A stretch of DNA of 62,402 bases, filler included. It is 14 parts of 14 records of this genome, joined end to end, with 100 filler letters (N's around TTAATTAATTAA, not from the genome) between each part and the next. Parts side by side here need not be neighbours in the genome. Positions count along the whole stretch, not along the records: positions 15,095 to 18,496 come from SRR15195285_6007; 13 more parts are not named here. One strand, written 5' to 3'. Shown in pieces: positions 4,477 to 41,293 of this stretch. The number at the start of each line of letters is the position of its first letter. Position 1 is the stretch's first letter. A program made the position numbers and the translations under genes. Under the pieces are notes generated by a model that worked only from the letters and a program-made list of their open reading frames with translations, was not told where the DNA came from and made no database searches.

Positions 4477-4669
4477 TGTATCCGGACATCGTCGTAATCC
4501 GCGCCGCGCGCCGCACTGTGGGAATCGAAAAAAATGCCGCGCCGCCGGTGCGCGTATGAAATAAAGTGCCCCGGCGCGTGCGTGGGACTGGTTTAAAACC
4601 TCGCGCTGCTGGCCAGTTGTACTGAGACTATCAGCAGCGCGCACGGCGATCGGCACTTGCGCCTTGCGA

Positions 4670-6310
4670 ATGACGCTGCTGGCGTTGGCTGGACTTGTCG
4701 TTGGGCTCGTGGCGTCGGTGTCGGCTTCTAAAAGCCTCTGTGGACCTTATCATACGACTCCCGACGGCCTGGATTATGGCCCACAGTTCCACATCATGGG
4801 CGCGATCAATTCGCTGGCACATCAGTGGCCCGATCAGAGTTGCTGCGTCAACGATGTCAATGGCATCTTCACGCGCAACGGCGTTCACCATGTGATGCAC
4901 CAGCATGGGTTCTTGTCAATCGCACATGTTGTCAGCACGGACCTCGTGCACTGGCACAGGGTTCCCGATGCTGTCGGCGCGAACCCGTGGCACGACGGGT
5001 CTGCTTGGGACGGTTCTGTATCCCTGCTGCCGGAGCCAATCGGTCCGATCATCATGTACGACTCGCCACCTGAGCCGTCTAACATTTCTCTCGCACGAGC
5101 GGCTGACACCACCGACCCTTTCCTTCTGAAATGGACCAAAGCTGGGCCGATGGTGCACGATGATCCGTGGCATCTGGATATGGACGGCGCGAAGGTTGAT
5201 TTTCCGAGCAATGTCTGGAAGAACGGCGACCACTGGAATATGCTCATCAACGTCAGGGAACCCAACGTCAGCAGCCACGATCCACATGCAATGAGTACCG
5301 CTCGGTTTCAGACAACCAACGCTTCTTTGGAGTCATGGCAGCTAGTCGATTGGCATTTCCACGAGTCAGTTGGGGACGGCAGCGACTCCTTCTTTCCGCT
5401 GGTCAAGAACGCGCCAGGACGTTCCGTTGCTGAACAAGGGTCCTCGACATCCCCACCCCCGCTGCCACAGTGGATGCTGAACGTCCATCTCGGTGAGCAG
5501 TTTGCGATTGGGATTTACGACCCTGTGCGTGAGAGGTTCACACCAAACAACGTGACCTACACCGCCGAATACGGAGCAAACCCCAAGCACTCAGCAGCTG
5601 CGACGTGGTTCGCTACAGGGCCTTCGTCGAACAATCGGACGATCACGATAGGATGGTTGAGTGGTTTGGGAGGGGGCAATCAATCGCAGTTGTCGTGTGT
5701 CCGTGAGCTGACCTGGAATCCAGACGAAGAGGCGCTGCTGTCCAATCCAGTTGAGGAGTACGCACTCTTGCGAAACAGCACTTTGGCGTCAGTCGAGAAC
5801 CTCTCGCTCGCAGGGAGCCACAGTCTTGTGAGGAGCGGCGCAGGCAGCAGTGATCTAGAGGCCGAGTTCACCGTGCCGTCGACGTTGGCAGTGGAGTTTG
5901 GCGTGCACGCATTCGTCGATGAAGGGTCAGGTCGTGCTGTTGTGACCGTAAACGTCACTCTCGAGGCGGAGACCGACAATGGAAGAGCTGGCTGGGTCAA
6001 CGCTTCGATACAATCTAACCTGACGACACTCAAAGATTCAAATCGTGGAAATGTCTGGGGCGGACCATTCCACTTGCCAAAAGGGGAGCGACAGGTGCAG
6101 CTTCGATCCCTTCTGGACCGTACCTCCGTGGAGAGTTTCGTTGGGGGAGGGCGCGCCGTTGTGACTGCTGTCTCCAGAGAGCCCATGGCGCTTAAAGCGT
6201 TTGGTGTGGGCTTGTTCGGTACGCCCGGCGTTCAAGTGACGGCGATGCTGCATGGAATGGGTTGTGGGTGGCTAGATCACATGCCAACTCCCCCGGCCGG
6301 CCCGTTCTGA
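4670..6310 (+). CDS. secreted glycoside hydrolase family 32 (invertase/fructanase-like), divergent active site
   Basis: Signal peptide MTLLALAGLVVGLVASVSA; QFHI...VNDVNG (NDPNG nucleophile motif), AHVVSTDLVHW, WDGS, IGW, RELT, C-terminal beta-sandwich LLDRTSVESFVGGGR. ATG at 4670 preferred over TTG 4664. Confidence 0.88.
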   Translation: MTLLALAGLVVGLVASVSASKSLCGPYHTTPDGLDYGPQFHIMGAINSLAHQWPDQSCCVNDVNGIFTRNGVHHVMHQHGFLSIAHVVSTDLVHWHRVPDAVGANPWHDGSAWDGSVSLLPEPIGPIIMYDSPPEPSNISLARAADTTDPFLLKWTKAGPMVHDDPWHLDMDGAKVDFPSNVWKNGDHWNMLINVREPNVSSHDPHAMSTARFQTTNASLESWQLVDWHFHESVGDGSDSFFPLVKNAPGRSVAEQGSSTSPPPLPQWMLNVHLGEQFAIGIYDPVRERFTPNNVTYTAEYGANPKHSAAATWFATGPSSNNRTITIGWLSGLGGGNQSQLSCVRELTWNPDEEALLSNPVEEYALLRNSTLASVENLSLAGSHSLVRSGAGSSDLEAEFTVPSTLAVEFGVHAFVDEGSGRAVVTVNVTLEAETDNGRAGWVNASIQSNLTTLKDSNRGNVWGGPFHLPKGERQVQLRSLLDRTSVESFVGGGRAVVTAVSREPMALKAFGVGLFGTPGVQVTAMLHGMGCGWLDHMPTPPAGPF

Positions 6311-8055: not shown

Positions 8056-9810
8056 CCGCAGTTTATTCGCCACCCAGACTCGTGGTTTTCAATGATGTGG
8101 GACCTACTGCAATTGGTGATGCTGCTCATGGTTTGCTATTATGTACCACTTCGGACTGGCTTCGACTTGTCGGTAGTCCTCTGGTCGTACGAGTTCTGGC
8201 AGGATGCATTCATTGACGTGTACTTCATCCTCGACATCATCATCCAGTTTCGATCGGCGTACTGGGACAGCTCGGGCGTACTCGTCGTCGACACTCGTCC
8301 TATCAGGAACAAATATCTCTCTGGATGGTTTGCGATAGACTTCGTCTGTGTTTTGCCGCTCGGGTACATCGGGTACTTCATCGGAGATGGCGGCGAGGGT
8401 AGTGCCTCCTTCCGCGCAGTCAAGTCGCTACGCCTCTTGCGGATGGGAAAGATGATGCGGCTGGCGAAGGTCTACAAGATGGTTCAGAAATACGACAGCA
8501 TCGCTGAACTGAAGCCTCTCATTGCGATCTTTGGACTTATTTTCCTGGTAATGTTGGCGAGCCACTTGCTTGCGTGTTTTTGGTTCCTTATCGGTGTTGA
8601 AGATCAGATCATGGAGAGACAGGCTGGTGCGGGAGTGACCGTTCTCAAGGGATGGGTCAATCAAAAGGCGGAAGAAGATGACTGGTGGGGTGAACTCGGC
8701 CGGAACGCGACACTGTCGACACGTTACGTAACATCGATGTATGGCATTTTCAACGCGCTTGAAAACGGATTCACGGACAGCGAAAAGGGGTTCGCGATCT
8801 TTGCGGAGCTCATCGTTGGTTCTGTTATCTACGGTGGTTTGGCCGCGGTGCTCTCGGCAGCTATGATGGAGGCACAACAGTCATCTGAAGAGTTCAATAA
8901 GAATTACAAGGCCATGAAGTCATGGATGACTGCTCGGAAGGTGGCAAGCAACTACCAGAAGCAAGTTCTAGCCTGCTACTCTCACAAGTTCAAGGATTCC
9001 ACGACTTTCAACGAAGAACAGCTGCTGGCGGAACTACCCCCTGCGATGGCGTCGAATCTGATGGAGAAGCTTTACGGCAAATTCGTCGCAGATGTGCCTT
9101 ACTTTCGCGGTCTCGACCAGACAATCATCATTCGCCTTTCGCAGGAAATCAAGACGCTGACTGCTGAAAGAGGTAGCGCAATCATGGAAGAGGGGAGAGT
9201 AGGCAAAGAGATGTTCATTCTTGTCGACGGCGAGGTGATGGTAGAGCAGCAGGGGATCGAACTGGGCTTCTTCAATCGACCAGGCTCTTTTTTCGGAGAG
9301 AATCCGGTCATATACTGGGACGAGAGCTCTGAGCGGCGCGAGAGGACTGTCCGTGCAGTCACCGACTGCTTCCTCGTCTTCCTTGACCAGGAGGCGGTGA
9401 TGCAGGTGGCGCAACGGTACCCTGAGCTTGAGCAAAAAATCAGTGAATTTCAGCGCCTGGGTCACAAGCATGGAAAACGCAAACCAGTACGCAAACCAGT
9501 ACGACGAACTGGTGCCAAAAATGACCACGCAACCGACGGAGGCGGCAACGGACGAGAAGGAGCAGACGGAGCAAGAAACGATGAAAACTCGGGCAGAGAG
9601 CCATCAACGGCCGCTGTGTCAACCGAGTTGTCAGCACACATTGACCGGAAGTTCGCGGCACTGCGGACTGTGATGGTGCAAGAGATGCAAGATGAAATCC
9701 AAGTGTGCTTTTCAAGAATGGAGTCAAAACTCCTCTCGGCGATGCAGGACTCAGGGCGGAAAGAAGGGAATAGTGACCCGCATGGGCGTGGAACAGCCAC
9801 GCGACCATGA
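8056..9810 (+). CDS. cyclic-nucleotide-binding-domain (KCNH/HCN/CNG-like) 6TM channel, 5' partial, pore signature absent
   Basis: FIRHPDS..WD S1, S2 DVYFILDIIIQFRSAY, S3 YLSGWFAIDF, S4 RAVKSLRLLRMGKMMRLAK, S5 SHLLACFWF, C-linker LAELPPAM, CNBD GKEMFIL...GSFFGE...RERTVRAVTDC. Frame open to contig start. Confidence 0.9.
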   Translation, partial: PQFIRHPDSWFSMMWDLLQLVMLLMVCYYVPLRTGFDLSVVLWSYEFWQDAFIDVYFILDIIIQFRSAYWDSSGVLVVDTRPIRNKYLSGWFAIDFVCVLPLGYIGYFIGDGGEGSASFRAVKSLRLLRMGKMMRLAKVYKMVQKYDSIAELKPLIAIFGLIFLVMLASHLLACFWFLIGVEDQIMERQAGAGVTVLKGWVNQKAEEDDWWGELGRNATLSTRYVTSMYGIFNALENGFTDSEKGFAIFAELIVGSVIYGGLAAVLSAAMMEAQQSSEEFNKNYKAMKSWMTARKVASNYQKQVLACYSHKFKDSTTFNEEQLLAELPPAMASNLMEKLYGKFVADVPYFRGLDQTIIIRLSQEIKTLTAERGSAIMEEGRVGKEMFILVDGEVMVEQQGIELGFFNRPGSFFGENPVIYWDESSERRERTVRAVTDCFLVFLDQEAVMQVAQRYPELEQKISEFQRLGHKHGKRKPVRKPVRRTGAKNDHATDGGGNGREGADGARNDENSGREPSTAAVSTELSAHIDRKFAALRTVMVQEMQDEIQVCFSRMESKLLSAMQDSGRKEGNSDPHGRGTATRP

Positions 9811-12234: not shown

Positions 12235-14994
12235 CTACTGCGACGCTACCCACGCGTAGAGTCGATCCAGTGGCGACCGCGCAACAGGCTGCAAGCGCTC
12301 CTCGCCACCTTCGCGCACTTCAGTCAGTGGCTCCTCCAGCGTAAATGTCGACTCAGCGGCGGGCACATTCGCTGGTCGGGGCGAAACCTCGTCAGTCTCC
12401 GTCTCCTGATGCTGTGGCATGCTTGTCATCATCGCCAGTTCCTGCACACCACTGTCACCCTCAAAGCTGCTTTGGGCAAATTCTGCGATGCCCTGCTGAA
12501 AGCGACGCCGACGGTACGTCTGACGGGCAACCAAAGCGACAAACAGCGTTGCAAACACACCATACGAGCTTAGCAGCAAGTAGCCGTACGTCTCGGCTCT
12601 AACCGGCTCGTACATTTCCACCCGAGGCAGCACACGAAGGATGAAGCTGATCAGAAACGTGAGGAATAGTACAGCCTCAGCACACACTTTTAATACGTTG
12701 GCTTCGGACTCCCGGTAGGGCAGTAGCCGCACATGCACGCCGAACGACGCAAACGAGATACAGCAGCCAACGAGCACCTGGGCGGCTGTGCCTCGCTGCA
12801 CAAACTGCAACAGGCCAGAGAGCGCAAGCTTGCGCAACATGTCTGCTGGCTCGAACCACCAGGCCTCAGGTCGGTAGTCGTTGAGACAGAAGGCGTAGCG
12901 TCGCATGAACTGTTCCTTGCTGTGCTGCACCGCTGCGGAAGCTGCGTTGAAGTCGCTTCTTGGCTGTCCGTCCGTGTTTCCAGCAGCTTCTGCCTCGAAC
13001 GTCTGTACGCTGTGGCGCCAGTTCTTCCATAGTAGACCGAGTAATCCGACCGGTATACCTATTGGCCACGCTGCCAACATTACCAACGCGAATGTTCGAT
13101 ATCGTTGGTACCGCGACCCGAGACAGTCGACAGAGTAATCCACCTCCAGCCGCTGCATGTACTCACCGAGCCTGCGACAGCGGAGCGCTGACAGAATCAA
13201 CGACGAGACACGCGGATACAGTAGCAGCACTACGAAGAAGAGCGCTGCAGTTGCATTCGACAGCGCCTTGGCATCTCGCCCATACCATCGCTGCCACGTG
13301 TATCGGCAGCCTACCGCAAGAACTGCAGTCGCCGGTAGGCCTAGGACTGTCAGGAGCCACGTGCTGTACCAGTCCCATCCATTGCAGTCGAAAGCGTACA
13401 GCATATGGAAATCTGCAGTAAACAGCCCCACATAGCTCATTGCCTGGCGTGGACCATCTGGAAACATCAGATTGAGCACATCTTTCAGCAAAGCCAATAC
13501 TTGGGCGAGGCCAAGAGCAATCTTGAGCATGACGAATACTTGCTCCTTCGCCCGCTTGAGACGCTGCCGCTGCCAGTAAATTGATCCACCAAATATCAGA
13601 ACTGCGGCAAGAATCAACAACACGAACAGGTTCCGTGATAGGCCGAAGTGCTCTTGAAAGAGGCTTTCATCACTGCACTGCTTGCACGAACCATCGCTAT
13701 TTCGACGTGAGTAGCCTTGCTCGCACATGGCGCACAGGGGACCCGTGTGGTGTGACCGACAATGAGCGTCGCCTGTGAACTTGAACGTCGTGTTAAGCAA
13801 CATCGGAGGGCACGTCACATCCTCGTATGCAGCACTCGGGCATTGGAAGGCAAATTGTGGACGAAAAGCAGCGTCCCGTAGCAAGTTGCCGATTTGGGAG
13901 AGGTCCGTGCTGTTCAATCGCCACCCTTCACTCAAATTTGCAACTCCGCCAGCACACGAAGCGCATTCATCCGGGCACTTCAAGCACACACTGTGGTGGT
14001 CTCGTTTAAGTGTGGCAATGTAGTCGCCGTAGCGTTTGTCTTCCGCTGTCCAGTCTTGGGTTGTGCACATAATTACGCCTGCGTGGCGCACATCGTAGGT
14101 GTTGCGCGGGCACTGACATGTGCTGCCGTCCACCACACTCGTGCCGTTTTCGCAAGACGGATAGCAGTCTCCGTCAGAGTTCTGGGTGTAATTGGGTTTG
14201 CAAATGCACGTAGAGCCAGTCGAGTCATGCTCGCTGTGTGGCTTACTGGTGCAGTTGATCGGCCTAAAGTTGACAGTTCGCAGTATATCGTACGCCTTGT
14301 ATGAGTCGAATCTGTCGTAGTTGGGTTGAAATTCCTCGTCGCCGTGATAGAATCGAAACATGTGACTGCCCTGCGTGGAAACCCAACCAGATGAGGGAAC
14401 GGTTGCAGTGAATGTACCATCACGATTGTCGACCATGGTGCGGGTGTGTTCGCAGCTGTAACTGCGGCACGGACCGTGAGAATCACAGCTGCAGTTGTAC
14501 CCAATGCGTAAGTCAGTGATGAGCAACCCTGTGAGCGCTGGCTGGTCATCGGCGTCGTACAGCTGCAGTGTCCAACTACACTCGTGCCCAACTGTGCAGC
14601 CTGTTGGCACTGTCACGCGGGTCCCACAACACTTAGATTGTCCGTCCGGAAAGGTGACTAGACACAGTGAGGTACTAGACGGTGATGTGTCCAAAATAAT
14701 CGGAATCGACACAACGCCGATCGACAGCGCGTGCAATGCAGGCAGCCGCGCCACAAGCGCGCTCAAGTCACCAGCAGATGCGTTGATCGGATTCTGATCA
14801 AGAAATAGGTGCGTCAGACTTGACGGGAGATCCTGCGGGAGACTCGTTATCGAAACATTGCTGAGCCGCAACGAAACCAGAGAATCGGAACGAGAAATGT
14901 CGCCGACGCCGGACACACGCGTGCCGTGTAGGTCGACAGTAGAGAGCCGAGTCATCTCGCCGACACTCTCCGGCAAGGTGCCGCTCAGGCTCGT
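12235..14994 (-). CDS. LRR + Ig/filamin-like + Cys-rich ectodomain, multi-pass membrane protein, 5' partial
   Basis: LSGTLPESVGEMTRLSTVDLHGT LRRs; DNRDGTFTAT Ig-like strand; Cys-rich CRSHHTGPLCAMCEQGY; about 9 hydrophobic helices with DYSVDC, YRPEAWWFEPADMLRKL and PY..AN motifs of a widespread protist multi-TM family. Confidence 0.8.
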   Translation of the reverse strand, partial: TSLSGTLPESVGEMTRLSTVDLHGTRVSGVGDISRSDSLVSLRLSNVSITSLPQDLPSSLTHLFLDQNPINASAGDLSALVARLPALHALSIGVVSIPIILDTSPSSTSLCLVTFPDGQSKCCGTRVTVPTGCTVGHECSWTLQLYDADDQPALTGLLITDLRIGYNCSCDSHGPCRSYSCEHTRTMVDNRDGTFTATVPSSGWVSTQGSHMFRFYHGDEEFQPNYDRFDSYKAYDILRTVNFRPINCTSKPHSEHDSTGSTCICKPNYTQNSDGDCYPSCENGTSVVDGSTCQCPRNTYDVRHAGVIMCTTQDWTAEDKRYGDYIATLKRDHHSVCLKCPDECASCAGGVANLSEGWRLNSTDLSQIGNLLRDAAFRPQFAFQCPSAAYEDVTCPPMLLNTTFKFTGDAHCRSHHTGPLCAMCEQGYSRRNSDGSCKQCSDESLFQEHFGLSRNLFVLLILAAVLIFGGSIYWQRQRLKRAKEQVFVMLKIALGLAQVLALLKDVLNLMFPDGPRQAMSYVGLFTADFHMLYAFDCNGWDWYSTWLLTVLGLPATAVLAVGCRYTWQRWYGRDAKALSNATAALFFVVLLLYPRVSSLILSALRCRRLGEYMQRLEVDYSVDCLGSRYQRYRTFALVMLAAWPIGIPVGLLGLLWKNWRHSVQTFEAEAAGNTDGQPRSDFNAASAAVQHSKEQFMRRYAFCLNDYRPEAWWFEPADMLRKLALSGLLQFVQRGTAAQVLVGCCISFASFGVHVRLLPYRESEANVLKVCAEAVLFLTFLISFILRVLPRVEMYEPVRAETYGYLLLSSYGVFATLFVALVARQTYRRRRFQQGIAEFAQSSFEGDSGVQELAMMTSMPQHQETETDEVSPRPANVPAAESTFTLEEPLTEVREGGEERLQPVARSPLDRLYAWVASQ

Positions 14995-15094
14995 NNNNNN
15001 NNNNNNNNNNNNNNNNNNNNNNNNNNNNNNNNNNNNNNTTAATTAATTAANNNNNNNNNNNNNNNNNNNNNNNNNNNNNNNNNNNNNNNNNNNN
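14995..15094. other. artificial contig spacer
   Basis: 44 N + TTAATTAATTAA + 44 N. Confidence 0.99.
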
Positions 15095-18000
15095 CTAACA
15101 CTGGCAGTCTACACGTACGAGGCTCTGGTGCGTATTGGAGCATATGGCTGGCGAGACTATTGGAAGACAGACAAAACCCCTTTCGCAATCGTGCTCATCA
15201 TGTGGCTGATGACAATTCACTACAACCTATCTCAGTATGAATGGTTTGACCCTACTGGGCACTTTGACTGGATTCAAGGGCTATCGTTCGTCATGATTCT
15301 GCGCATGACACGCCTTTTGTCAGCTTCAGTCCAGGTGCGCAAGCTGTTGAAGTTGATTTACATTTCACTACCACAGGTGGCCAACTTGGTGACGGTAATG
15401 ATCCTACAGTTTTTCATTTTCGGCATTCTAGGAATGAAGTTGTACGGAAAGGTCCCACTCGAAGGCACAGATTTCAAAACAAACGAAATCAACGAGTACA
15501 ACAACTTCCAGTCTGTTCCGTCTGCAATGATGCTACTGTTTCAAATTGCAACTGGCCAGCCTATTGTGAAAATAGTTGAGGAAATCAAGGAAAGCGAAGG
15601 CGGCCACCCGTTTATTTTCTTTGCGGTCTTTTTCATCTTCGCCAACATGGTTTTGCTAAACTTGTTCACTGCGCTACTACTGGACAACCTTGATCTGATG
15701 GGCGCGAGTGACTTCGGTATTACGGACGCTGACGTCAGATGGTTTCACAAGCGTTGGCATGCATTCGGGTTGTTCGCGAATGACGAAATTCACATCAGGG
15801 ACCTGCGAGGCTTTGTTGACAATATTGGTGGCTCTTTCGCTGTAGTGACTGCTGCCGACAAACACTGGTACAAGCGGCTGCTGCTGGACTTAGACGTCCC
15901 CCCAGAGGAAATGAACGATACGAGCACCAGAATGTTCGGCTTTCATCGAGTCCTACTGTGCCTGTGCCATCTGCGCTTCAACTCGTCATGCCTACCATAT
16001 GAACTGGAAGTAGCGGCCTCGGCAAGAGCAGAGCGTATGCACAAAAACCACGCAGCGCGGATGATCATTCTGTTCTGGCGCGCACACAAAATGATCAGGA
16101 ACGTGCCATCAGAATATTCAGCGTCGGAACAGCTTACAAAGAGGTGGAAGATTGCAGTTGGAGTGGCACGTTTGTGGACGCTGGATGCTGTTAACGGAGT
16201 CTACAAGTTGAACAACCTGGATGACGTAGAGGCAAAGACGAAAAATCTTTCGACTGCCATGCAGCTCATGTCTGGCTGGAAAGGTCCAGAGGTGGAGGGG
16301 GATGAAGACGCCGTCGTCGACATGAAGGAGCTGGGCGATGAGCATCTAGAAAAGCTGGCGGAAGGCGATGCTGAGGCACACGAAATGCTCCTTGCACGCA
16401 TGGAGGAAATCCATCAACAGCGGGTCAAGGTGAAGGGAGGGATTGGTACGTGGTGTGTTGGTGGAAAGCTAGTCGGCCAACCATTTGCAGTGGCGCAAAC
16501 TTTTGTGCTGACGCTTGTTCTACCGGTCATGCTCATCGGCGTCTTCCATGTGCTTGTCAAGATCATCGGGGAGCACCACATGAGCGTCTTCAGCCCAGAG
16601 TTTGTGATTCTAGTCGTTTTTCCAGCGGCCAGTTATGTTGGATGCTGTTACATCGTCGCCCAATACTTTCTGGTGCCATCGCTTTTCTCCGCGCGACGAC
16701 AGATGCTAATGTTCAGTAGCTGGGCTGGTATTGCAAACTACGGCGCAATTTTGTACGGCCTGACGAATGAAGGGCGACAGCATTGTCAGGTCCTTGCAAT
16801 TGTCAACAATGCTGCCTATTTGACGCAAATGGCATGGCAGGTCACTGCAACCTACACAGCGTTTCGCTTCGTCAAGTTGGGTAAGCTCCGGGTCAAAGGA
16901 TGGTGGCGTCTTGCGCTACAGCTTGTCAACTGGGTCGGTCCGTTGTTGCTTACGCTTGCGCTGTTCTTTCTTAAGCCTGAAGCATTTCATGAGACCTTGG
17001 ACGAGCTCAATGGATTGGGCTGGTGTGGTGTGCGAAGTGACCCGGAGTTCCTGTACTGGAAGCTGTGTTTCATCTTGATTCCACAGCTCGCAGGAGTATC
17101 GATGTACGCGTATTGCTTTTCGTACATCATTGACGTCGTCGACCCGCCAGAGACCACTGTGATGCGACGATCTGCTGATGACTCGCGAGTCAGCACGAGC
17201 CACCATGAGGATCTGCTCTTTGCCAGCGATGCGAAGCAAGCAGTTGCCATGGCGCGAGCTGCGGATCGCATCAAGCTCTACTTGACGGGTTTCATGTTGA
17301 GCTATTTGACAAACACATTGCTGACAATTGTCTTGGAGAGAGAGAAGACAGCTAGCGAGTGGACGACGTTTGATTATTTGATTTGTGCGGCAGTCGTTAC
17401 ACCCCAGCAGGCCCTGTATGCACGGGTATTCAATAGCGGCGGAGGTAGTGGAATTGTATCTGGACTTGCAACCTTCCACAAATCCACAGTAGTCTCAGCA
17501 TCTGGTGCAGTGGTGTCCAACATAAACAGCATGGCAGCTTCGTACAAGTGGGTTCGGATGATGCAAGCAAGCTCCATCGGACAGACAGTGACAGTGCAAG
17601 TTAAATCGACAACCAGTCAAGCAACTTCCGCTTTTGCAAATACTCTGAACGAAGCCAACCGACAAACTAAGCAGGCAGCGAAAGCCAAGCCCAAGGCCAC
17701 ATGGACAGACAGCACGGCAGCAGCATTTATAATGCGCTGGGTGAGCGTGTTTGCACAATGGGGTTTCAATACATGGCAAGCGACGGTCATGGTTCCAGTT
17801 GCACTGTGGGTATGGACACCGATTGAATTCATCAAAGATAACTTCACGGAGCGTCTGAGTGCGGTGATGATGGCACTGCTGGGTTATGGTTTGTTTTTGC
17901 TCGTCCCTGTGTTCTATTTTCGCGTCGACGCGACTGGCTCTCCGGATGGCAGTGACACTGGGATGGACTACAGCAAACTCTTTGGAGTTGATAATCCCGA

Positions 18001-18496
18001 GGACTTGTGGGACCGGCAGGCTGCTGGTCCGGTTGGAGTCTTCGTGTACATGTCCCTGATTGCTCTGGTTGGCATGACCGGGGCATTTGTGAATCGGTTC
18101 AACACACATCTTCTTGTCATCGACGGCCCACGCTCAACGATTCGCAAGACGAAGAAAAACTATCTTGGCATATACACGCTGTGTATTGAGTGGTTTCAGA
18201 TTGGCATGCTTGTGTTCACAGGTGCACGTCTTTTGCAGAAGTATCGTGACCCTCGCGTGATCGATGGCGAAGAAATGAGTTTAAGGAAGCTCATCATCGG
18301 CTTGATCTTGGACAACGTGTTCTACGTCCAGTACTATGGATCATTGATCGGTGTGGTCGTCTGGGCATCTTGTTATGCTGGGCCTGCGATAGTGGAGAAG
18401 CTGTACTCTAGAAAGCGGGCTCTCGCTATGCAGCGTAATCTGGGCGTGCTCTTCTTTGTGCTGTCTGGTCCTGGATTTTTGACGATCATGAAGTCT
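15095..18496 (+). CDS. fusion: Cav/Nav-type channel last repeat + EF/IQ tail + cAR/GCR1-like 7TM GPCR module + further multi-TM module; partial at both ends
   Basis: One stop-free frame across the contig. Channel: YTYEALVRIGAYG, ISLPQVAN, FFIFGILGMKLYG, NNFQS...LLFQIATGQ, VLLNLFTALLLDN; IQ-like AARMIILFWRAHK. 7TM: SYVGCCYIVAQY, CQVLAIV...W, NWVGP, GWCGV, FILIP, IKLYLTGFMLSY, TPQQALYARVF. Confidence 0.8.
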
Positions 18497-18596
18497 NNNN
18501 NNNNNNNNNNNNNNNNNNNNNNNNNNNNNNNNNNNNNNNNTTAATTAATTAANNNNNNNNNNNNNNNNNNNNNNNNNNNNNNNNNNNNNNNNNNNN
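18497..18596. other. artificial contig spacer
   Basis: 44 N + TTAATTAATTAA + 44 N. Confidence 0.99.
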
Positions 18597-18669: not shown

Positions 18670-18766
18670 CGCCAGCCGGACTCTGTGGCCTCCGAGAGCG
18701 ACCTGCTGAATACGGCTGATATGAAGAGACTGCTTTCCTTGCCAGCGCAGTGAAGTTGGGTGGGCT

Positions 18767-21700
18767 ATGCGGGCCGCGCTGAGCGGCGTGACGAAGTATG
18801 AGAGCACGGGCGGCGGCTCGGACAGTGTGCTGAGCAGGCGCTTCAGGCGGCAGTCGCTCTCTCGCGTGGTCGTCAATACCGAGGACGGTGTGTCGAACGA
18901 TGAGCCGATCGTGTTCATCCCGCGGCAGGTGCCGCTGACTCCTGGCACGCGCGGAGGGTTCGCTGTGTTTATCGTTTTCATCGTGACGTTCTCGCTCATC
19001 GTGGCACAGGAGCGCAACGACGCGGTGTTCTGGTTCGCTGAGCATGCGAGGCAGCTGGTTGCCGTGGACGACTTCCGGCGCCTGGCTCAGGAGCGACACA
19101 GCTACCGCGAGTACCAGCAGTGGTTCGCCTACCACTTCCTGGACGGCATGGCGAATGCGACGACGCGGCTGGCACCGGGCCAATCCGTGGCAATGGTCGG
19201 TCCACCGCGAATGAGGCAGGTCCGGTATGCGGACACCTGCGCCACCCCTGACTACGTTAACGGCCTGGTTCCAGCGTGCCTCGACAACTACGAGGAGTCA
19301 AGGGAGCCTTTCGGCGTCAACGTACCAGAAGGCCTATTCAACAGTGGCGGCCAGTGGAATTACGTGAGTGCGGACGTGACTGGTGACACCGGGCACGTTG
19401 GGCGTTTGCACTACTCGTACAGTGGAGCTGGCTACCTTCTGGAGATGAAACCGCTGCTTGAGCGGCCAGCAGGGATCTCGGATCCAGGCTCAGAGTTCTA
19501 TCCGTTTGCGCATTGGAAAGTCAACGTGACGGACCTGTGGGAATCGGGTTGGATCGACAAGTACACCAAGGCGATATTCCACGATTTCACATTGTACTCC
19601 AGCTCTGAAGACCTATATGCAAATGTACGAGTGACCGCAGAGTTCGAAAGCAACGCGGCAGTCTTCCATATGGGGATCAATCTTCGTGTGTTCTGGCTCG
19701 AGCGCAGCGCCTCGTGGATGTCTGTGCAATATATTTTCGCGGTCTTTCTTGCCATCCTGATCCTGGGTGAGTTGGACGAGCTACGGTGGGGCATGCAGTG
19801 CGCGGACAAAGTGCTGGTGGAACGGGTTGTGGAGCTGAAGTACCTATTGCGTCTCAAGGAGCTGCAGTTTGGCGCAGAGCACGGTGTTCCTGAGCTCTAT
19901 AAACCCCGGCGGGTGCTCAAGAAGCTAGCCTACCGGCTATTTCAGGTGGACAGCTCCTGTGTCCATCATATCAAGGAATTGAATGCCATCGGCATGAAGA
20001 TTCCACAGCTCGACAACCACTTCCAGGATGCCATGCGAATGCTGCATGCCTCCGGGCTAAAATCATCCAAGGCAAGCTTCAGACCGAATCCGATCGTCAC
20101 AGACAATCTAAATCTCACCAGAGCACAGCTGAACGAGCTGCGAAGCGCAGACGAGTCCGACAGCCTGCTCAGGAAACTACAGAGGCTGCGTATCCGATGG
20201 AGCGCAAGCGTGAGGTTCTACTACCAGACAGAATGGAACAACTTGGATAGCCTCAACTACTTTCTGCTCCTCTGCTCGTTCTTCTGTCGCGTGTACTCGT
20301 GGACCCTGATGGGCGATCAGACAAAATTGGTGGAGGAGCTGGATCGCGAGGACCCATTCGCGGACAAAAATTACGTGAACTTCTACACTGTCGCTCTGTT
20401 CTTTGGTGTATCCTTCTACATCAACTCACTATCTGCAATTCTGACGTGGATCAAGCTCTTTAAGTTCCTGAGCTTCTTTCCGCAGATGTCAATCTTCACG
20501 AAGACCCTGTCGCTTTCCGCGTCCCATCTAGGTGTATTCTTCATCGTCGTCATCGTTGTACTGATTGGCTCTGCGCAAGGATTTTGTCTTGCGTTCGGTG
20601 CAGACGTAGACGGCTTCCGCGATCCATTCATCTCTGTGATCACAATATCGCTCTTCACGGTCGGCAAGTTCGATTACGAGAAGCTAATCTGGTCACAGCG
20701 ATGGCTTGGACCTGTTCTCTTTTGGGTCTACATATTTTTGGTGTTTTTCGTAATGATGAGCGTCTTTATCGCCATTCTGTCGGAGGGGTACGAAGCAGCC
20801 AAATCAGCCATTCCCGCCACCTCGTCAGGAGATATCTGGGAGGCTGTGCAGACAGTCGCGGTCGAAAACTACGTGGAGGTGAGGGAAAGCACGCGAATGT
20901 CCTTGCGGCGGGTTACGGGGCAGAATAGGGCGCAAGAGAAGTTAGTCGAAGGTATATACAAGGTGCGAGCGGGTGTGCAGATCGCCGGAGCGATCTCAGC
21001 ATTTCAAAACCCGGAACCAGAGGATCATATCGGCGCCAACTCTGGTGGGAGGGGTCGAATGGAATCAAGCAAGGCGGCGAATATTGCGACCGACTCTGAG
21101 TCCGATGAGGAACCCGACGGCAGCAATCGCAACTATCATGGCGACCAAATGATGAGAGACTTGGCGAAGATGACACGGCACGAGATTCATGAAGAAGGGG
21201 AGGAGCCGGTGTCAGTAGAGACCGTGACGACACAGGGTTCGTTGCCAGGCACCCCAGCAGAGGAGCCAGGAGGAGACGATGGCAAGGAGAAGATAGACGC
21301 AGAGGACCTGAAGATCATTCCGTCTCGGCAGAGGGCGAGACGAGCTATGACAATGCAGATGCCGGAACTAGATGAGGGCGGAGCTTCATCAGAGGAAGAA
21401 GGGGACGGCAATGCAGCGGGCGGTCAGGTGCTGGACCGCTTGAGCAAGTTGGAGACGGCAGTGGAGACACTGGTTGCAGAGGGGCAGGGCAGTGCTGCAC
21501 AGCTAGAAGGCTTGCAGGAGAAACTTGCCGCAATGTCTGCTGTGAATGGAGACACGCTGCAGCAGATCGTTGAGCACCTCTCGACACTGTCACACGTCGA
21601 GCGGAGTGCTCCCGAAAAGCACAGCCGAAGTTTCAGCAGGCACAGGCGCCATCGTTCCCCTGCCGCGAGCGCTGCAAATGGTGATCCTCAGGACAGCGAT

Positions 21701-22162
21701 CATGATAGCCACCATGGAAGTCACCGGCACATACACAACACTGACTCAGGGGGGCACCCGCATGACCGTCACCAGGGCCACCGACACAACCATGACACAC
21801 GCCCAGGGGGTCATCGGGACCAGCGCCAAGAGGGTGGCGCTGTCCACCAGCATGGGCACGCGTCATATGTGCGTGCGAAGTCGCCTAGCCCAACACATGG
21901 CGCAGCTGTAATGCGGGAACGCCCATCTCTGCATTCAGGCTCTCAGTCGCCTCAAGGGGATGGGTTCAGCACCGAGCGGGCTTCCTCAAATGGTCGCAGC
22001 TCTGTACCTAATATGCGACAGCAGCTCGCGGCGATGACACGCCTGAAGGGCGGAGCTGCTACGGCGGCGGAGAAACGTAAGAAGGTGCTGTCGATGAGAG
22101 AGCAGATGGCTCAGATGAGTGCCAACAACAACATGGAATCGACGTTGATTGAGAGGCGTTGA
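18767..22162 (+). CDS. polycystin-2 / TRPP-like cation channel (upstream exon likely missing)
   Basis: TOP domain VGPPRMRQVR, YSGAGY, LWESGWIDKYTKAIFHDFTLY; WNNLD S3; S4 WIKLFKFLSFFPQM; S5; pore FGADVDGFRD; S6 FFVMMSVFIAILSEGY; C-terminal coiled coil and His-rich tract. Possible splice acceptor at 18745. Confidence 0.9.
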   Translation: MRAALSGVTKYESTGGGSDSVLSRRFRRQSLSRVVVNTEDGVSNDEPIVFIPRQVPLTPGTRGGFAVFIVFIVTFSLIVAQERNDAVFWFAEHARQLVAVDDFRRLAQERHSYREYQQWFAYHFLDGMANATTRLAPGQSVAMVGPPRMRQVRYADTCATPDYVNGLVPACLDNYEESREPFGVNVPEGLFNSGGQWNYVSADVTGDTGHVGRLHYSYSGAGYLLEMKPLLERPAGISDPGSEFYPFAHWKVNVTDLWESGWIDKYTKAIFHDFTLYSSSEDLYANVRVTAEFESNAAVFHMGINLRVFWLERSASWMSVQYIFAVFLAILILGELDELRWGMQCADKVLVERVVELKYLLRLKELQFGAEHGVPELYKPRRVLKKLAYRLFQVDSSCVHHIKELNAIGMKIPQLDNHFQDAMRMLHASGLKSSKASFRPNPIVTDNLNLTRAQLNELRSADESDSLLRKLQRLRIRWSASVRFYYQTEWNNLDSLNYFLLLCSFFCRVYSWTLMGDQTKLVEELDREDPFADKNYVNFYTVALFFGVSFYINSLSAILTWIKLFKFLSFFPQMSIFTKTLSLSASHLGVFFIVVIVVLIGSAQGFCLAFGADVDGFRDPFISVITISLFTVGKFDYEKLIWSQRWLGPVLFWVYIFLVFFVMMSVFIAILSEGYEAAKSAIPATSSGDIWEAVQTVAVENYVEVRESTRMSLRRVTGQNRAQEKLVEGIYKVRAGVQIAGAISAFQNPEPEDHIGANSGGRGRMESSKAANIATDSESDEEPDGSNRNYHGDQMMRDLAKMTRHEIHEEGEEPVSVETVTTQGSLPGTPAEEPGGDDGKEKIDAEDLKIIPSRQRARRAMTMQMPELDEGGASSEEEGDGNAAGGQVLDRLSKLETAVETLVAEGQGSAAQLEGLQEKLAAMSAVNGDTLQQIVEHLSTLSHVERSAPEKHSRSFSRHRRHRSPAASAANGDPQDSDHDSHHGSHRHIHNTDSGGHPHDRHQGHRHNHDTRPGGHRDQRQEGGAVHQHGHASYVRAKSPSPTHGAAVMRERPSLHSGSQSPQGDGFSTERASSNGRSSVPNMRQQLAAMTRLKGGAATAAEKRKKVLSMREQMAQMSANNNMESTLIERR

Positions 22163-25320: not shown

Positions 25321-26547
25321 GTACTGGTACAGTACGTGTAGAAGTTAAAAGTACAATTTTGAGCAATTGTAGAACTATCCCCCCGAATTCTCTGCTGTTC
25401 GTCACTGCTGTTCGTCGCGTGCCGGCGAGCCTTCGTCGCCGCCTGCCCGCCTCTCGGGGTACGCGCTCAGCGCACGCGTGTACGGCGCACGCGTGTACGC
25501 GCAGCGCTGGTACAGCTGCAGCTGTACCTAGCCGGACTAGTACCGTAAACTATAAGGATAAAGGATATAAGCGCGGCGCCGGCGTGCGTGGCTGCGTGCA
25601 TCGCGCTGCTGCACCAACCAGTGCCGCGAGCGTCTCAGGCGGCACGCACGTGCGTCCAGCGTGCGGCTCGCCCCTCTCCGAGCCGAGGAGCGGGTCAGGC
25701 GAGAGCTTCTCTTTGGCGCTGGGTGCTGGCGGGGCTGAGACGCAGACTGGCTTGTGAGGTGAGTGCATTACTTGAAGAGAGTTGGCCCGCCGCCCCGCTG
25801 GCTGGCTGGCTGGCCGGCTGCCGGCGACGCTGCCGGGCTGCGCGTCCGTCGCGCTGCCTCGTCACGCCCAGATATGTCGTCACGCTGGCATCTCGAATAG
25901 CTCGAGCCTTTTGCTACATATCACACGGCGAAAGGACAGAGGTGTTTACATCTCGTTTCCTTGCCGCTTCGATAACGAAAGGTAGAATGGTCGGTTCACC
26001 GACGCCGGGACTTATGTCCAGCTGGCCCCCCAACAACCCCGGGGATCACAATGCCACCCTGGAGTCGTCTCTCTGTACATCTCCAACCCCACCTGCTGGT
26101 TCAAACACTTTCTGTTTTTTAGCCTACGACTTTCGCTCCACGCTCGCGCTGTGTATTACGCTTTGGCTGTTCGGTCAATCCGAAGCTGCATCAAATCTGC
26201 TCTCTGATGGGCTGCTCAGGCATCAGGTTGCCCGACCTGCATTTACAGAGTCTGATCGCTGCGTGTTCTTTCCGGTGTTCAGCAGTTCGCAGGCTCCATC
26301 TGGCAGTTCGCGTCGACCGGTATAGACGATACGATTACGACACAGATGGTGTGCGTGTCCTGCATGGAGCATGACGGCGCACTCCGCGTGTACTGCGGAC
26401 ATGTGCACTCTATACACCAGCCCAAATTGCGAAACCCCGCACCCTTTGTTCCTTCATCACCTGCATCAACTGTCATTTATCATCATTATTACAAAGTGGT
26501 ATACCACTCTAGCAAATTATTCTATCATTTCTATTCTGAATTAGTTG

Positions 26548-27363: not shown

Positions 27364-30300
27364 ACAATTACGACGGATGCGCACCTTGTATCGAGGTGGA
27401 CAACGCTGCGGCCAATGCCACGTATACGTGCACGGACGATGCAGATTCCAGAGTGAGCGAGTGTGCACCGGGGCATTATCGAGAGCCCGGTGCAGTTGGA
27501 GCGATGGACCAGTGCAAACCCTGGAGGATTTGCGGCTACAACACAGACCAGATCAACGGCACAAATTCAAGCGATGCTGAATGTGCGTGTCTGCCAGGGC
27601 ACTACGAACCCATTTCTGGTGGTACGGACGGCCTCCTTGACAATAGCACAGGCATTTTGTACGGTTACGACTGTGTGCCCTGGACTCCCTGTGGCGAAGG
27701 GGTACAGGTTTCGACCAATGGCTCCAGTTATATCGACCAGAAATGTGGAGTAAAGCTCAACGTTGCGACCAAAATTCAAGGGGCGATGGACGCAACCGAC
27801 TTCATATCAGCCATTACAGCAGCTATGTCGACAGGTGACGGCAGCGGGGCAGCAGTCCCGGCAGAGAACATCACAGTCACTATCACCAAGTTTGAACAAG
27901 TCATTGAGTCTGAAGCGACTGTGCCTGGTACGGTTTCGGATTACGCGGTGGGAACACCCGGCGGGGATGCTCGGGCGCTGCAGTTCCGTTCTGGAGTCGC
28001 ATCTACCCTGGACACACCGCTCGATACCATATCAGAGCTGAATGTCAGCAACGGGCGCCGCCTGTTGACGACATCGGCTGCTGAATGGGATGGGGCAGAT
28101 TTTAGTCGGGACACGGGGGCAACAGGTCTGCCGCCCTGGATCCTGGAAAAGGGAGTGCAGAGTGTAGAAACACGAGGTCTACCAGAAAAACGAACGCTGA
28201 CAACGTTGTCGCCAGAATCAACGCCTACAGGTATTGTGACGACGGTCGCCACGCCTTCTCGTCCCGTGGATCAGCGCAACATAAACATTTCAGCCCATCA
28301 CCGGTACCTGCAGGACGGATCCGTCAATATCTTGTATAGCGTAATTGTGGATGAGCCGGAAAAGGCAGTCGCAGTTGCAGCGACAGCCTCAGACACAACA
28401 GCATTCCAAGAACAGTTGGTCGTAAACGTCAATCAGGCCGCTCAGGTCCTGGTGGAGCAGGGTCTGGTCAGCGAGGAAATCATGCAAGCAATTCCCGTGA
28501 TGGACGAGATATCGGTTTCAGAGCCAATCATCGAGACGAAGATTGATTATACGGTCTCCGTCGAGACCGAGGATGCCGATATAGGCTCGCAGATGTCTGA
28601 AAATCTGGGCGACCCACAAGTGCTCGCGACAGCGATCTCGGCACAGACTGGGCAAAACATTACAGTTGAGAACGACGTTCTCTGCGACATCCTCACTCAG
28701 TACGAGAGTGCGCCCAAAACGGCTCTGCGCGCCCGAGTATGCACCTGGCTAACTGTATGCGACACCCCGCATCAGTTCGAGTCGGTCCCCGCTACATACT
28801 CCTCCGACAGAAACTGTACTGACTGCACCCCGGTGCAGAACACCGACGCGAATGTGGTGTACTCCTGCAGCTCTGAGAATGACACACGTGTCTCGGCCTG
28901 CCAAATCAGTTTCTATGTCTTGCGTGGGTACCGGAAGACTTCTTCACAGCGCGATCCTCTGGCCAACGGGATAAACTCCACACATTTCCCGTACGGTAGC
29001 CCGGACCAGTGTTTACCGTGTGATGACATGTCCAACGTACCATCTGTCGACAGCTGCGAACGATGTCGAGGCTCAACCTCGTCGGATTGTCTTGATGGCA
29101 CATGTGCCGCGGGCTATTTTACATATGCTCGGGTTTCCAATGACTGCAGTCCGTGCAGCACAGGTAAATACAACACGATGACAGGAAGTGCAGACAACAG
29201 CGACTGCCTAGACTGCCCGACCGGCACGTACGCAGAGACTCGCGGGAACGCTGTCGAAAGTGATTGTCTGCACTGTCCTTCAGGGAAATACGGAATTGAG
29301 AAGGGTGCCGGGTTTGCCTCCAGCTGCATCGAGTGTGATGCCGGGACTTGGTTGGCTCTGACTGGCCAAGATTCACCTTGGGACTGTGAGAATTGCACCG
29401 CAGGTAGATTCTCTGATCAGATTGGTCAAGTCAGGCTGGAAGACTGTGAGGCATGCCCGGGTGGAAAATGGTCTGCGAAGGTCCGCGCGAGGCTGGAGGC
29501 AGAATGCCGAGACTGTGGATCCGGTAAATTCTCGAACCGTACAGGCGCACCATCTGACGCTGAGTGCGAGCTCTGCCCGCGGGGACGATGGGCGTCCACA
29601 CCAGTCAACGTTCACGCTGACGACTGCGTCTTGTGCGGTGTTGGTCGCTACAACCAGATTCCAGGCAGCATTTCTGGCATGGCTTGTATCGAATGCGGTA
29701 TGGGCCGATATTCGTCCAAGTTGGGGTCGATCTCAAATGATGATTGTACGGGATGCCCGATGGGGAGATACGGAGACAAAACTGGCCAGACCAGCTTGGA
29801 CGCCTGTGACGTCTGCGTGCCGGGCAAGCATCAAGACGAGCAGGCTAAAACAGAATGTGATCTGTGTGAAACTGGGAAGGCTCAGGAGTCGCCCGCGGCT
29901 CAGGACTGTACGGAATGTTTCCCAGGTACTTATACAGATCGCGGCGCAGTAATCTGCGCGCCATGCCCGCGAGGTACGTACGACCATGACGACGATGCTG
30001 CGACTTCGTGTGTTGAGTGCACAGTAGGTTTGTACAACGATGAAACAGGCGCGCGTGGTCAGCCTGGATGCAAAGCCTGTGTTGCTGGAAGGTACGGAAA
30101 CACCAGCGGTGCTATTCAATTCTCAAACTGCACGCGCTGTCCATCCGGTTCGTGGTCGGAATTCCCTGGTTCCAGGACGTGCGCTCTCTGTCCTGACGGC
30201 AAGTTTCGAGTGGATGAGTCTGATGTGATTCGAACTGAGCAGCTCGGGCTGTACGAAGGCCAGGCGGACCTCATTAATGCTTGGGAGACTTACGTACAAA

Positions 30301-37420: not shown

Positions 37421-37688
37421 CCGCTGCTCCAGCGCTTCCTCTTGCTGCTTGGGCCCCTGCTCCGCCAGTGTGGCTGCGTGCGAGAATCACCCTGACCCAC
37501 GACGGAGCGCTCGCGCGTCGCTCGCCGGCGCCAGGGCCGGCGCGGAGCGCGTGCCGTGCATGCGGGCCCGCCCAGCGCGGAGCGCGCGCTAGCGTGAGCG
37601 AGGAGTCAGGAGTGTGGCCGCGGCGCGCGGGACGCGCGGGACGGACGGAGCGCGTCGGAGCTATGGTACTCAAACATACGGTACTCAG

Positions 37689-39748: not shown

Positions 39749-41293
39749 CTACATCCATAATGTCAAAATGTGTACAACGGCTGCTGACACACATCTCACA
39801 ATATCCCACTGCGACAAGCCATTGTACGCCCCAGAGTGGTCGCTGTCGGGAGCTGGTGACGATGTAGTCGTAGTAGTCGAAGAATATGACGAAGATGAAA
39901 TGGTAGTATGAGATTCTCGAGAAGATGACCGGCGGCGGCTCGATGATGATGGTCGGTGATCGCAACCAAAACACGCGCAGGACACTTCGTCAGGTCCCGA
40001 TCTGCGGCGACGGGACAAAATCGAGTTCCGGCCGGTGCATGTCGATGGGCACCCGCCGGAGAGGCAGCAACCACCATTGGAACAGGATCCACGTGGGCAT
40101 GATGAAGTCTGAGCGGGAGCATCTTCTTCGTACGTGCATGGAGCGTTCGAGGGCGACGACGATGAGGAGGATGATGGTGCTGGCGGAGGTGCAGGGCAAG
40201 ACTGCGCAACGGAACACGTTCCTGCAGTATTTTCGTTTAGCTGGATCACGCTGGTAAAGTACCCAGTATGGCAGCACAGTGTGGTCGAATGGCAGTCGCC
40301 ATTGTGGCAGAAGGTGCTGCTCGCACGGTTGCCGGCGCCCACACACACGTCTGCACCTACACATGGCAGGTACCCCGGGTTAGAGGGTTCGTTTGCTTGG
40401 TCAACTGACTCCAAGTCAGACGCCATTCGGTCCATTTGCGCGCCGATGCTGTTGCAAATCCGTGATGCAGATTGACTAGCGATCCACTGGCACGGGTTGC
40501 TCCAAGACGTGTCACCGTCAGCAAGGATGCATATCGCTGTGAACAGGGCCCCACAAACAACCGGACGGCCTGAAACTGAAGAGCAGATCGTCTGCAGGTC
40601 ACATCTACCACTTCCCGTGACCATATTGATTGCGCGCTCCACCACGTCCTCACATAAGCTGCGCTTCTCGGCAGCACTCGGCGCATCGTTATCCGTCAAG
40701 CTTCTGAAGAGCGAGTACACGCTCTTGACGACACCCCCTGCACCCTCAGCAACGCACTGGAGGCTCGTGTCCACGATCGCGAGCCCCTGCGTTTGCACAT
40801 CACCAAGGTCAAAGCTGCGAGTCCATCAACGTGGGCGGCACATCCAAGCAAATGGACTCACGGTCTGCAGCCGCCGCCACTCGGCGTCTGTCATGTTGGC
40901 GAGGGGCTTTTGCATCAGTTCCACGAATAGGTCATTGCGCTGCAGCGCGCGGAATTCGTTCGCATCTGCCACTGCCGTTCCCTCTGTCGAGTTGCTGTCG
41001 TGTATGTCAGGACCCAGAGCTTCCCTGCGTGGGCACAAGTGAGGAATCTGGCAACTGGTATAGCTCGGCAGTACCCATGCGGGTGCATCGGGGAAACATG
41101 GGCAGCTGCGACCCTACTACGCGCGCAGACCGCTGCGCGTATGGAGTTGTCTACAGCACGCATGCCGAATTACCGATGCGCACAGGGTCACTCACACATG
41201 CGCAGCTGCGCTGCTCACCAAAAGTACGACGGCCACTAGACGATGTGACACTGATGGGTACATGCGACCGGCGGCGGACCCGAGCCCGGACAT
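39749..41293 (-). CDS. secreted Cys-rich surface protein, possible GPI anchor, 3 exons
   Basis: Signal-like LVAVVLLVSSAAA; GT-AG introns link EALGPD...WRRLQT and ORF 39749..40798; many Cys; S/T-rich stalk; hydrophobic C-terminus VSAAVVHILTLWM*. Confidence 0.6.

Follow-up and report, generated by a model that had tools for sequence, protein, structure and literature searches.

An open reading frame joining a four-domain voltage-gated cation channel to a GPR157/cAR-like seven-helix module

A channel and a receptor-like module on one chain

G-protein-coupled receptors, or GPCRs, and voltage-gated channels are two great membrane signalling systems of eukaryotes, normally linked through G proteins or second messengers. 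One contig in the 62.4-kb stretch of DNA analysed here (the window) encodes part of a protein in which relatives of both appear to share a single polypeptide. The contig, at 15095-18496, is complete at 3402 bp, and one frame is open from its first base to its last; the 1134 stop-free codons counted in the preliminary description of this DNA were confirmed by translation, and an open reading frame (ORF) of that length is a real gene and not a chance one. Since the ORF fills the whole contig between artificial spacers, the gene is cut at both ends. Its product aligns unbroken, end to end, to residues 1597-2733 of the 3814-amino-acid (aa) orthologue P0004 with 85% identity, which marks the contig as an internal fragment of a giant single-ORF membrane protein. 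Sequence comparison across the family shows the following predicted domain order: N-terminal EF-hands, a four-domain channel with the pore ring D/D/E/Q, a cytosolic tail, an acidic helix and a further helix (helix 0), and after helix 0 a seven-transmembrane (7TM) module homologous to GPR157/cAR-type receptors, a linker, an orphan module with some 8-10 helices, and lastly ARM-like repeats, EF-hands and R3H. That this is a real single-ORF fusion is close to certain.

The fusion recurs in other proteins. When the region after the tail was searched for among longer proteins, four of 4684 candidates were found, all with Ion_trans and with 100% query coverage: P0004 (3814 aa, 84% identity), P0005 (3707 aa, 83%), P0006 (3467 aa, 56%) and P0007 (2099 aa, 48%). 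Together with P0009 these make five public protein clusters, 48-85% identical and up to 3825 aa long, each an uninterrupted ORF. Domain mapping by jackhmmer gives the order repeats I-IV, tail, helix 0 and 7TM, linker, module 3 and two C-terminal regions, which is colinear throughout P0004, P0005 and P0006; the fragments P0007 and P0009 follow it over the length that they cover. The claim that channel, 7TM and a third membrane module lie in one natural frame is supported. Conservation of the 7TM (91/88/68/55/54% identity over the five clusters) is on par with that of the channel repeat (91/92/63/56/52%) and is the highest within the extension, and the junction region itself retains 43-85% identity to the orthologues.

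Independent sequencing runs point in the same direction. The stretch or part of it occurs in 19 public runs from 15 studies, 12 of which contain at least half of the sampled words, and four runs were aligned to the contig. In the DNA run X1, one contig of 3979 nt spans 15095-18289, both linkers included, and differs at 11 places without any gap. Contigs assembled from the RNA libraries of two studies, which may stem from library DNA and are no proof of a single transcript or of translation, cross from the tail through helix 0 into the first two transmembrane helices (TM1-2) (X14, 15936-16531; X15, 16010-16776), and the passage from linker to module 3 is bridged by a further contig of X14 (17451-17963); stretches without RNA-library cover carry no evidential weight. 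No joints, insertions or deletions were reported in the four aligned runs. Nothing was seen of what the preliminary description had named as fatal to the fusion, such as a coverage break or chimeric junction in the linkers. The 17 variant sites between runs, 9 of them synonymous, are too few for an argument about selection. Two scans of metagenome contigs found no full-length orthologue locus, and the continuity of the orthologues rests on single-protein calls together with the run contigs that bridge the junctions.

The closest named relatives come from EukProt single-cell assemblies of Picozoa, and the remaining cluster members are unnamed marine metagenome proteins. Public database names of these proteins are generic, for example 'Ca2+-binding EF-hand superfamily protein'.

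The channel and its cytosolic tail

Module 1 had been described as S2-S6 of a four-repeat-type cation channel, and database comparison bears this out. Pfam Ion_trans is recognised at residues 3-202 (E 1.7e-27), with 96.7 bits where the cut-off is 25. In PDB 112 sequences match at E<=1e-3; Cav3.2 repeat IV is at the top (E 1.4e-32), and chains of other Cav, Nav, CatSper, TPC and NALCN channels come after it. The module corresponds to residues 1597-1795 of P0004. Of the four repeats the window contig contains only the fourth; repeats I-III, to be sought beyond the contig according to the preliminary description, are found in the orthologues P0004 and P0006 and not within the window. Both orthologues have four Ion_trans stretches per chain, which jackhmmer maps to repeats I-IV. 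In the orthologue repeat alignment the S4 segments of repeats I-III are basic, and there is a pore ring D/D/E/Q that is conserved in P0004 and P0006, with Q155 as its contribution from repeat IV in the window. This ring differs from the canonical EEEE, EEDD, DEKA or EEKE, and odd pore rings are common among protist four-domain channels in the available text of a survey of this group (PMC5824947). With four Ion_trans repeats, basic S4 segments in I-III and a conserved ring, the channel looks intact.

The tail that follows is conserved in channel-fused proteins only, as seen in the jackhmmer domain map. It had been read as EF-like and IQ-like, a reading that has fared less well. Pfam IQ, GPHH and Ca_chan_IQ give no match at E<=1 in the window protein, and the tail alone reaches a best E of 1 against PDB sequences. 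Weak support remains in the alignments of the whole fragment to Cav2.3 and Nav1.5/1.8, which extend to query residues 246-270.

The seven-helix module

The part of the protein beyond the tail belongs to a small family. In an exhaustive HMMER/phmmer search of 1.84 billion representatives, residues 451-1134 matched 47 proteins at E<=1e-3. One of these, P0049 from Sycon ciliatum (E 1.2e-5 library-wide), is named 'probable GPR157' by its sources, and passes Pfam Dicty_CAR (30.9 bits, cut-off 21) and 7tm_2. The link to GPR157 was followed with a set of 18 GPR157-type proteins, aligned as A2. Profile comparison by hhalign of the module-2 family with this set scored 98.5% with 11 rows (E 2e-15, 184 columns) and 98.7% with 27 rows (E 2e-16, 165 columns), over a match that spans TM1 to TM5. 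At the level of single sequences, BLASTP of the window module against the Sycon GPR157-like protein gave 29% identity over 164 residues (E 2e-13, composition-adjusted). A PDB search with profile A1 returned 20 chains at E<=10, all 20 of them GPCR constructs, the best being ADGRV1 (2.9e-4); the GPCRs matched by profile were always of classes B2 and F. By language-model features (Atlas), residues 451-790 are likened to Dicty_CAR, 7tm_2 and GPR157 clusters with scores of 0.93-0.95. By these comparisons module 2 is homologous to GPR157/cAR-type GPCRs over TM1-TM5, and true homology of the 7TM to GPCRs is very probable. The cAR-like 7TM of the preliminary description is supported over TM1-TM5; in TM6-TM7 similarity to GPCRs is not detectable.

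The layout of the module agrees with that proposed from the letters alone, which placed helix 0 at ~16480-16560 and the seven helices at ~16600-17435, close to the limits in Table 1. Averaged hydropathy shows helix 0 and six clear peaks, with TM3 under threshold. The residues singled out as helix signatures in TM3, TM4, extracellular loop 2 (ECL2), TM5 and TM7 are conserved in a family alignment of 26 rows, with fewer rows where positions are unaligned: W581 in TM3 (25/25), W613 and P616 in TM4 (26/26 and 25/26), W643, C644 and G645 in ECL2 (23/26, 25/26 and 24/26), P663 in TM5 (25/26), and P770 and Q771 in TM7 (18/22 and 21/22). The window protein has both cysteines of the TM3-ECL2 pair (C564 and C644). 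Mean counts of Lys plus Arg in the same alignment are 1.8, 3.4 and 5.8 for the inside loops and 0.6, 0.7, 3.1 and 0.9 for the outside ones, values that fit an N-out, C-in topology of the 7TM.

Intracellular loop 3 (ICL3) carries a Ser-Thr-Ser triplet at 17192-17200, conserved in 23, 21 and 26 of the 26 rows, in fused and stand-alone forms alike. It may be a phosphorylation switch.

Module 3 and the C-terminal end

Conservation is lowest in the linker that joins the 7TM to module 3 (37-82% identity to orthologues). Hydrophobic helices restart at about residue 895 (17777) and continue to the contig end; in full-length relatives the complete module 3 is some 450 residues long, with 8 hydrophobic peaks that stand out clearly, for about 8-10 helices. 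It resembles nothing described among the families searched: seven module-3 proteins have no Pfam match at E<=1, the module-3 part of profile A4 matches no PDB sequence, and by hhalign the module is similar neither to module 2 nor to GPR157, nor is one of its halves similar to the other. The 16 proteins retrieved with profile A7 all belong to this one family and lack Pfam domains. One relative, P0013, has a WLS-like_TM match under the cut-off (E 0.0045). An Atlas lead at 0.88 pointed to a cluster in which 25% of members carry PF06011; this TRP-like membrane domain was rejected for module 3, which has no Pfam match to it and scores 0.1% by hhalign against the PF06011 protein of the window.

The preliminary description likened module 3 to two ORFs, at 12235 (-) and 27364 (+), and this did not survive comparison (BLASTP best E 0.67; hhalign 0.1-0.2%). 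The first, at 12238-14994 (-), is a 919-aa ORF with a PF06011 TRP-like domain (3.2e-10) and DUF7630; the second, at 27366-33011 (+), is an 1882-aa frame cut at its contig start, with three stretches of Ephrin_rec_like (9.9e-25). By BLASTP and hhalign both are unrelated to module 3.

After the membrane part, members of the appended family continue into EF-hands, ARM-like repeats (importin-alpha-like, 1.4e-5 to 9e-5) and R3H (SMUBP-2, 8e-4). C-terminal regions with ARM-like repeats, EF-hands or R3H were seen in P0010, P0033, P0015, P0020, P0022 and P0004, after about 16-18 membrane helices, and P0004, a channel form, carries R3H near its end as stand-alone members do. R3H is a nucleic-acid-binding domain, and its placement on a polytopic membrane protein is odd. 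Full-length channel forms also have pairs of EF-hands at the N-terminus.

Origin of the fusion

The appended part also exists alone. Channel-less members of the family start with Met, without channel or tail, and run from 50-130 cytosolic residues ending in the conserved acidic helix into helix 0, and on through 7TM and linker to module 3; in long members the chain extends further into ARM-like repeats, EF-hands and R3H. In the junction alignment, likeness to these stand-alone N-termini starts at about window residues 410-430, and everything upstream is specific to channel forms. Since the acidic helical end of the tail is already a motif of the appended family, the fusion boundary would lie at about residues 400-430. 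From the acidic helix on, the alignments show the appended part to be a complete member of a rare family, and the junction likeness together with a helix 0 of its own implies that a whole gene of this family was joined to the channel tail. Helix 0 had been taken as the extra helix needed to bring the 7TM N-terminus outside. It does serve that topology; its presence in Met-start channel-less members means that it is not specific to the fusion and is no fusion adaptor.

Maximum-likelihood trees place the channel-fused rows on one side of a branch both for the 7TM (support 93/90) and for module 3 (support 88/91), and recover the same three subfamilies. The 7TM tree holds 24 of 50 proteins, 16 having been dropped as too short and 10 as near-identical cluster mates; the module-3 tree holds 21 rows after 15 short ones and 11 cluster mates were dropped. 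GPR157 rows were too short to keep, so both trees are unrooted, and they are therefore compatible with a single fusion to the channel C-terminus without proving it.

Proposed function and its alternatives

These features can be assembled into a model in which the extension acts on the channel that carries it. From the channel tail in the cytosol, helix 0 would lead the chain outside, and the 7TM would accordingly sit N-out, C-in, sharing a membrane with the channel. It would then return the chain inside, leaving the linker and all that follows module 3 probably cytosolic. The channel, voltage-sensing by appearance and probably Ca2+-permeable, would be controlled in its gating, clustering or location by the tethered 7TM sensor unit in cis, either through direct conformational coupling or through local signalling, with Ca2+ feedback provided by the EF-hands at the two ends of the protein. 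Taken whole, as architecture plus cis-control, this model is slightly favoured. Receptor-to-channel coupling as the function of the protein is more tentative, somewhat short of an even bet, and the name 'receptor-operated channel' is purely inferential.

The most ambitious form of the model is unlikely. The polypeptide would combine a GPCR-family chemosensor with a Ca2+-permeable four-domain voltage-gated channel, and a ligand bound to the tethered 7TM would directly open the channel or shift its gating, with no diffusible G protein in between. For a flagellate of 3 micrometres this would mean a one-molecule route from chemical cue to the Ca2+ transient that sets off its jump and its 'skedaddle' swimming, with module 3 and the ARM/EF-hand/R3H end as an additional membrane machine on the same chain. 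The only described picozoan shows stop-jump-dash motility, in a description that makes no mention of calcium (PMC3608682). The link between the fusion protein and picozoan motility is speculation.

Could the extension be an anchor and not a sensor? Information might flow in reverse or the role might be structural: the 7TM and module 3 would form a membrane anchor or assembly domain, and the ARM/EF-hand/R3H part a Ca2+-responsive effector or scaffold at the channel mouth, with no ligand and no G protein. The EF-hands, ARM-like repeats and R3H that follow the membrane part and the N-terminal EF-hand pairs of the full-length channel forms suit such a role, as does the failure of TM6-TM7, the helices that open for G proteins, to align to GPR157. 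A mere anchor would not, on the other hand, be expected to keep its extracellular-side positions (W643, C644 and G645) as a ligand or sensor pocket would, nor to be the best conserved part of the extension. A role of this kind is about as likely as receptor-to-channel coupling, which is to say less than even. It finds a parallel in LYCHOS/GPR155, a larger membrane protein whose built-in GPCR domain does not appear to engage G proteins (PMC11525196), which makes a non-receptor role plausible here too.

That parallel is one of several points that weigh against the cis-control model, along with the possible DNA origin of the RNA-library contigs. At the pore locus repeat IV carries Q and lacks the Trp that is usual there, so ion selectivity, and even conduction, is uncertain. 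Most of the other points concern the 7TM. Only 16 rows of 25 retain C564. Neither Dicty_CAR nor 7tm_2 of Pfam matches the window protein at E<=1, and in alignment A1 one member of 25 matches these models, namely the Sycon GPR157 protein. E-values against PDB vary with the alignment (A1 2.9e-4, A4 3.3e-3, A3 0.18-0.22, A6 0.36), and TM6-TM7 score 0.09% against GPR157 by hhalign. The accessible text on GPR157 gives three motifs, LLxxLS[LVI]xD in TM2, WCW[IVL] in ECL2 and QGxxNxIxF in TM7 (PMC12716839). In module 2 the ECL2 motif keeps Trp-Cys and has Gly as its third residue (24/26), the TM2 motif keeps its Ser and has no acidic residue aligned to the Asp, and the TM7 motif is not alignable. With the motifs partly present, module 2 is a divergent relative of GPR157 and not GPR157 proper.

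The lack of a Pfam GPCR match, PDB profile E-values that are marginal in three of four alignments and the unaligned TM6-TM7 could also be taken to mean that the likeness is convergent or compositional, and that module 2 is an unrelated polytopic domain sharing hydrophobic periodicity. This is very improbable. Against the 98.7% of the real profiles, reversed ones reach 0.1% and twenty column shuffles at most 0.6%, and module 3, equally hydrophobic and rich in transmembrane helices, scores 0.1% against GPR157; a block-of-25 shuffle reached 96% and was set aside, since real motif blocks survive in it and it is no valid null. The pairwise BLASTP score is adjusted for composition, and the hallmarks of the module (TM3 Cys and Trp, TM4 Trp..Pro, ECL2 Trp-Cys) coincide in alignment with GPR157 invariants. 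Least credible of all is an artefact of assembly, scaffolding or gene calling, in which two adjacent genes or fragments of two organisms are read as one: the source assembly is highly fragmented, with spacer-joined contigs of 3-9 kb, and a contig open end to end shows no start or stop, but five clusters share the uninterrupted order, the X1 contig and the RNA-library contigs span the junctions, the junction region is conserved and no break in GC content is seen along the contig.

Features of the contig and its surroundings

The window consists of 14 short contigs joined by 13 spacers, each of the form N44-TTAATTAATTAA-N44. Contigs are joined by spacers only, and the adjacency of ORFs across them, including those at 12235 and 27364, is therefore without genomic meaning. 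Features of the contig are collected in Table 1.

Table 1. Predicted features of the contig at 15095-18496 and the spacers that flank it
Feature	Position	Strand	Basis or remark
Repeat IV (S2 to S6), four-domain voltage-gated cation channel	15095-15691	+	Pfam Ion_trans; PDB Cav3.2
S4 of repeat IV	15281-15355	+	repeat alignment
Pore loop of repeat IV	15506-15577	+	filter position Q155 at 15557-15559
S6 of repeat IV	15605-15691	+	repeat alignment
Cytosolic tail, residues 200-454	15692-16456	+	proximal part prolongs alignments to Cav2/Nav C-terminal domains
IQ-like stretch, residues 319-336	16049-16102	+	read by eye
Acidic helical tail end	16373-16432	+	N-terminal motif of the appended family
Helix 0, strongly hydrophobic, before the 7TM bundle, residues 464-491	16484-16567	+	hydropathy, alignment
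Seven-helix GPR157/cAR-like module, residues 501-779	16595-17431	+	hhalign, BLASTP, phmmer
TM1	16595-16672	+	
TM2	16703-16762	+	
TM3	16790-16870	+	
TM4	16910-16972	+	
ECL2 with W643-C644	between TM4 and TM5	+	
TM5	17060-17131	+	
ICL3, long, with conserved S-T-S at residues 700-702	between TM5 and TM6	+	
TM6	17270-17335	+	
TM7	17372-17431	+	
Ser/Thr/Ala/Gln-rich linker, residues 780-894	17432-17776	+	presumably cytosolic
Module 3, first ~240 residues, orphan multi-helix membrane module	17777-18496	+	cut by contig end
Artificial contig joint N44 + TTAATTAATTAA + N44	14995-15094	.	outside gene; ORF cut here
Artificial contig joint N44 + TTAATTAATTAA + N44	18497-18596	.	spacer after contig

No further piece of the gene was found in the 62.4-kb window, where tblastn of P0004, P0006 and P0010 matched only this contig, and a search for tandem repeats within the contig found none. 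The proteins encoded on other contigs of the window are ordinary for a eukaryote and include a PKD channel, calpain, SKA1, glycoside hydrolases and PAP2. Two of these contigs encode other channels. The 1145-aa frame at 18725-22159 (+) is a polycystin-2-like cation channel (Pfam PKD_channel 3.4e-29, Polycystin_dom 3.3e-14), and an ORF fragment at 8056-9807 (+) combines Ion_trans (4.5e-15) with cNMP_binding (5.4e-12), as a single-repeat channel of CNG/HCN/KAT type. Two ORFs of glycoside hydrolase family 32 lie on separate contigs (4565-6307 (+) and 45945-47882 (+)). Frames without a Pfam family at E<=1e-3 are found at 58763-62161 (-; 1133 aa) and 35837-37486 (-; 550 aa), and likewise at 140-1408, 25549-26322, 39752-40825, 48714-50525 and 50574-51374.

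Relation to known systems

A four-domain channel bearing this receptor-like extension appears, from its sequence, to be new and without precedent. A literature search found no description of a Cav/Nav-GPCR fusion, within a scope that left out supplementary tables, such as the GPR157 homologue lists of PMC12716839, which may list these proteins. The word 'channel' is absent from the available text of the GPCR-bigram review (PMC6033456), as are 'GPCR' and 'fused' from that of the four-domain channel survey (PMC5824947). A word search of the text of a GPCR evolution survey gave no such fusion, and the words 'channel', 'GPCR' and 'receptor' are absent from the Picozoa genome paper. The protein offers a way to ask directly if cis control of a four-domain channel by a 7TM receptor can occur, and a possible template for engineered ligand-gated excitability tools, and it defines a rare protist family in which helix 0 and a 7TM are combined with an orphan multi-helix module and ARM/EF/R3H.

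Each half of the fusion resembles its parent family and departs from it. With four-domain voltage-gated channels the protein shares four Ion_trans repeats in the orthologues, a Cav3.2-like repeat IV, basic S4 segments and a mostly acidic ring; it differs in the ring D/D/E/Q, the lost Trp of repeat IV, the N-terminal EF-hand pairs and a C-terminal extension of ~1800 residues with ~16-18 more helices. With GPR157/cAR-like GPCRs it shares homology over TM1-TM5 and the TM3 Cys/Trp, TM4 Trp..Pro and ECL2 Trp-Cys, whereas it falls below Pfam thresholds, leaves TM6-TM7 unaligned, lacks the TM2 Asp and has an extra helix 0. Mouse GPR157 is described, in the text available, as a ciliary, Gq-coupled receptor acting through Ca2+ (PMC4855140).

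Natural fusions of 7TM proteins to effectors are known, with other partners or another order. The GPCR-bigrams of oomycetes and amoebozoans (GPCR-PIPK, -INPP, -AC, -PDE and -TKL), as far as the accessible review text goes, likewise join a 7TM covalently to an effector (PMC6033456). In these the GPCR is N-terminal and its partner soluble and catalytic, whereas here a 24-helix channel lies on the N-terminal side. No catalytic Pfam domains were found in P0004, P0006 or P0010. Polycystin-1, also large and receptor-like, has a cleavage domain of adhesion-GPCR type and six channel-like helices at its end, but is not known to have a 7TM GPCR fold or a four-domain voltage-gated channel. LYCHOS/GPR155 (a PIN-like transporter, a class-B2-like GPCR and DEP) also has a GPCR-type 7TM inside a larger polytopic protein (PMC11525196); its partner is a transporter N-terminal to the GPCR, with no voltage-gated channel, and it is likened to the present protein by architecture only. 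The bestrhodopsins of marine algae, in the portion of text available, are also natural fusions of a seven-helix sensor and an ion channel, and giant proteins (PMC10962995), but their sensor is an N-terminal microbial rhodopsin and their channel a pentameric bestrophin anion channel. The present protein would lengthen two lists, the short one of GPCR domains at work in larger membrane assemblies (LYCHOS) and that of fusions between seven-helix sensors and channels (bestrhodopsins).

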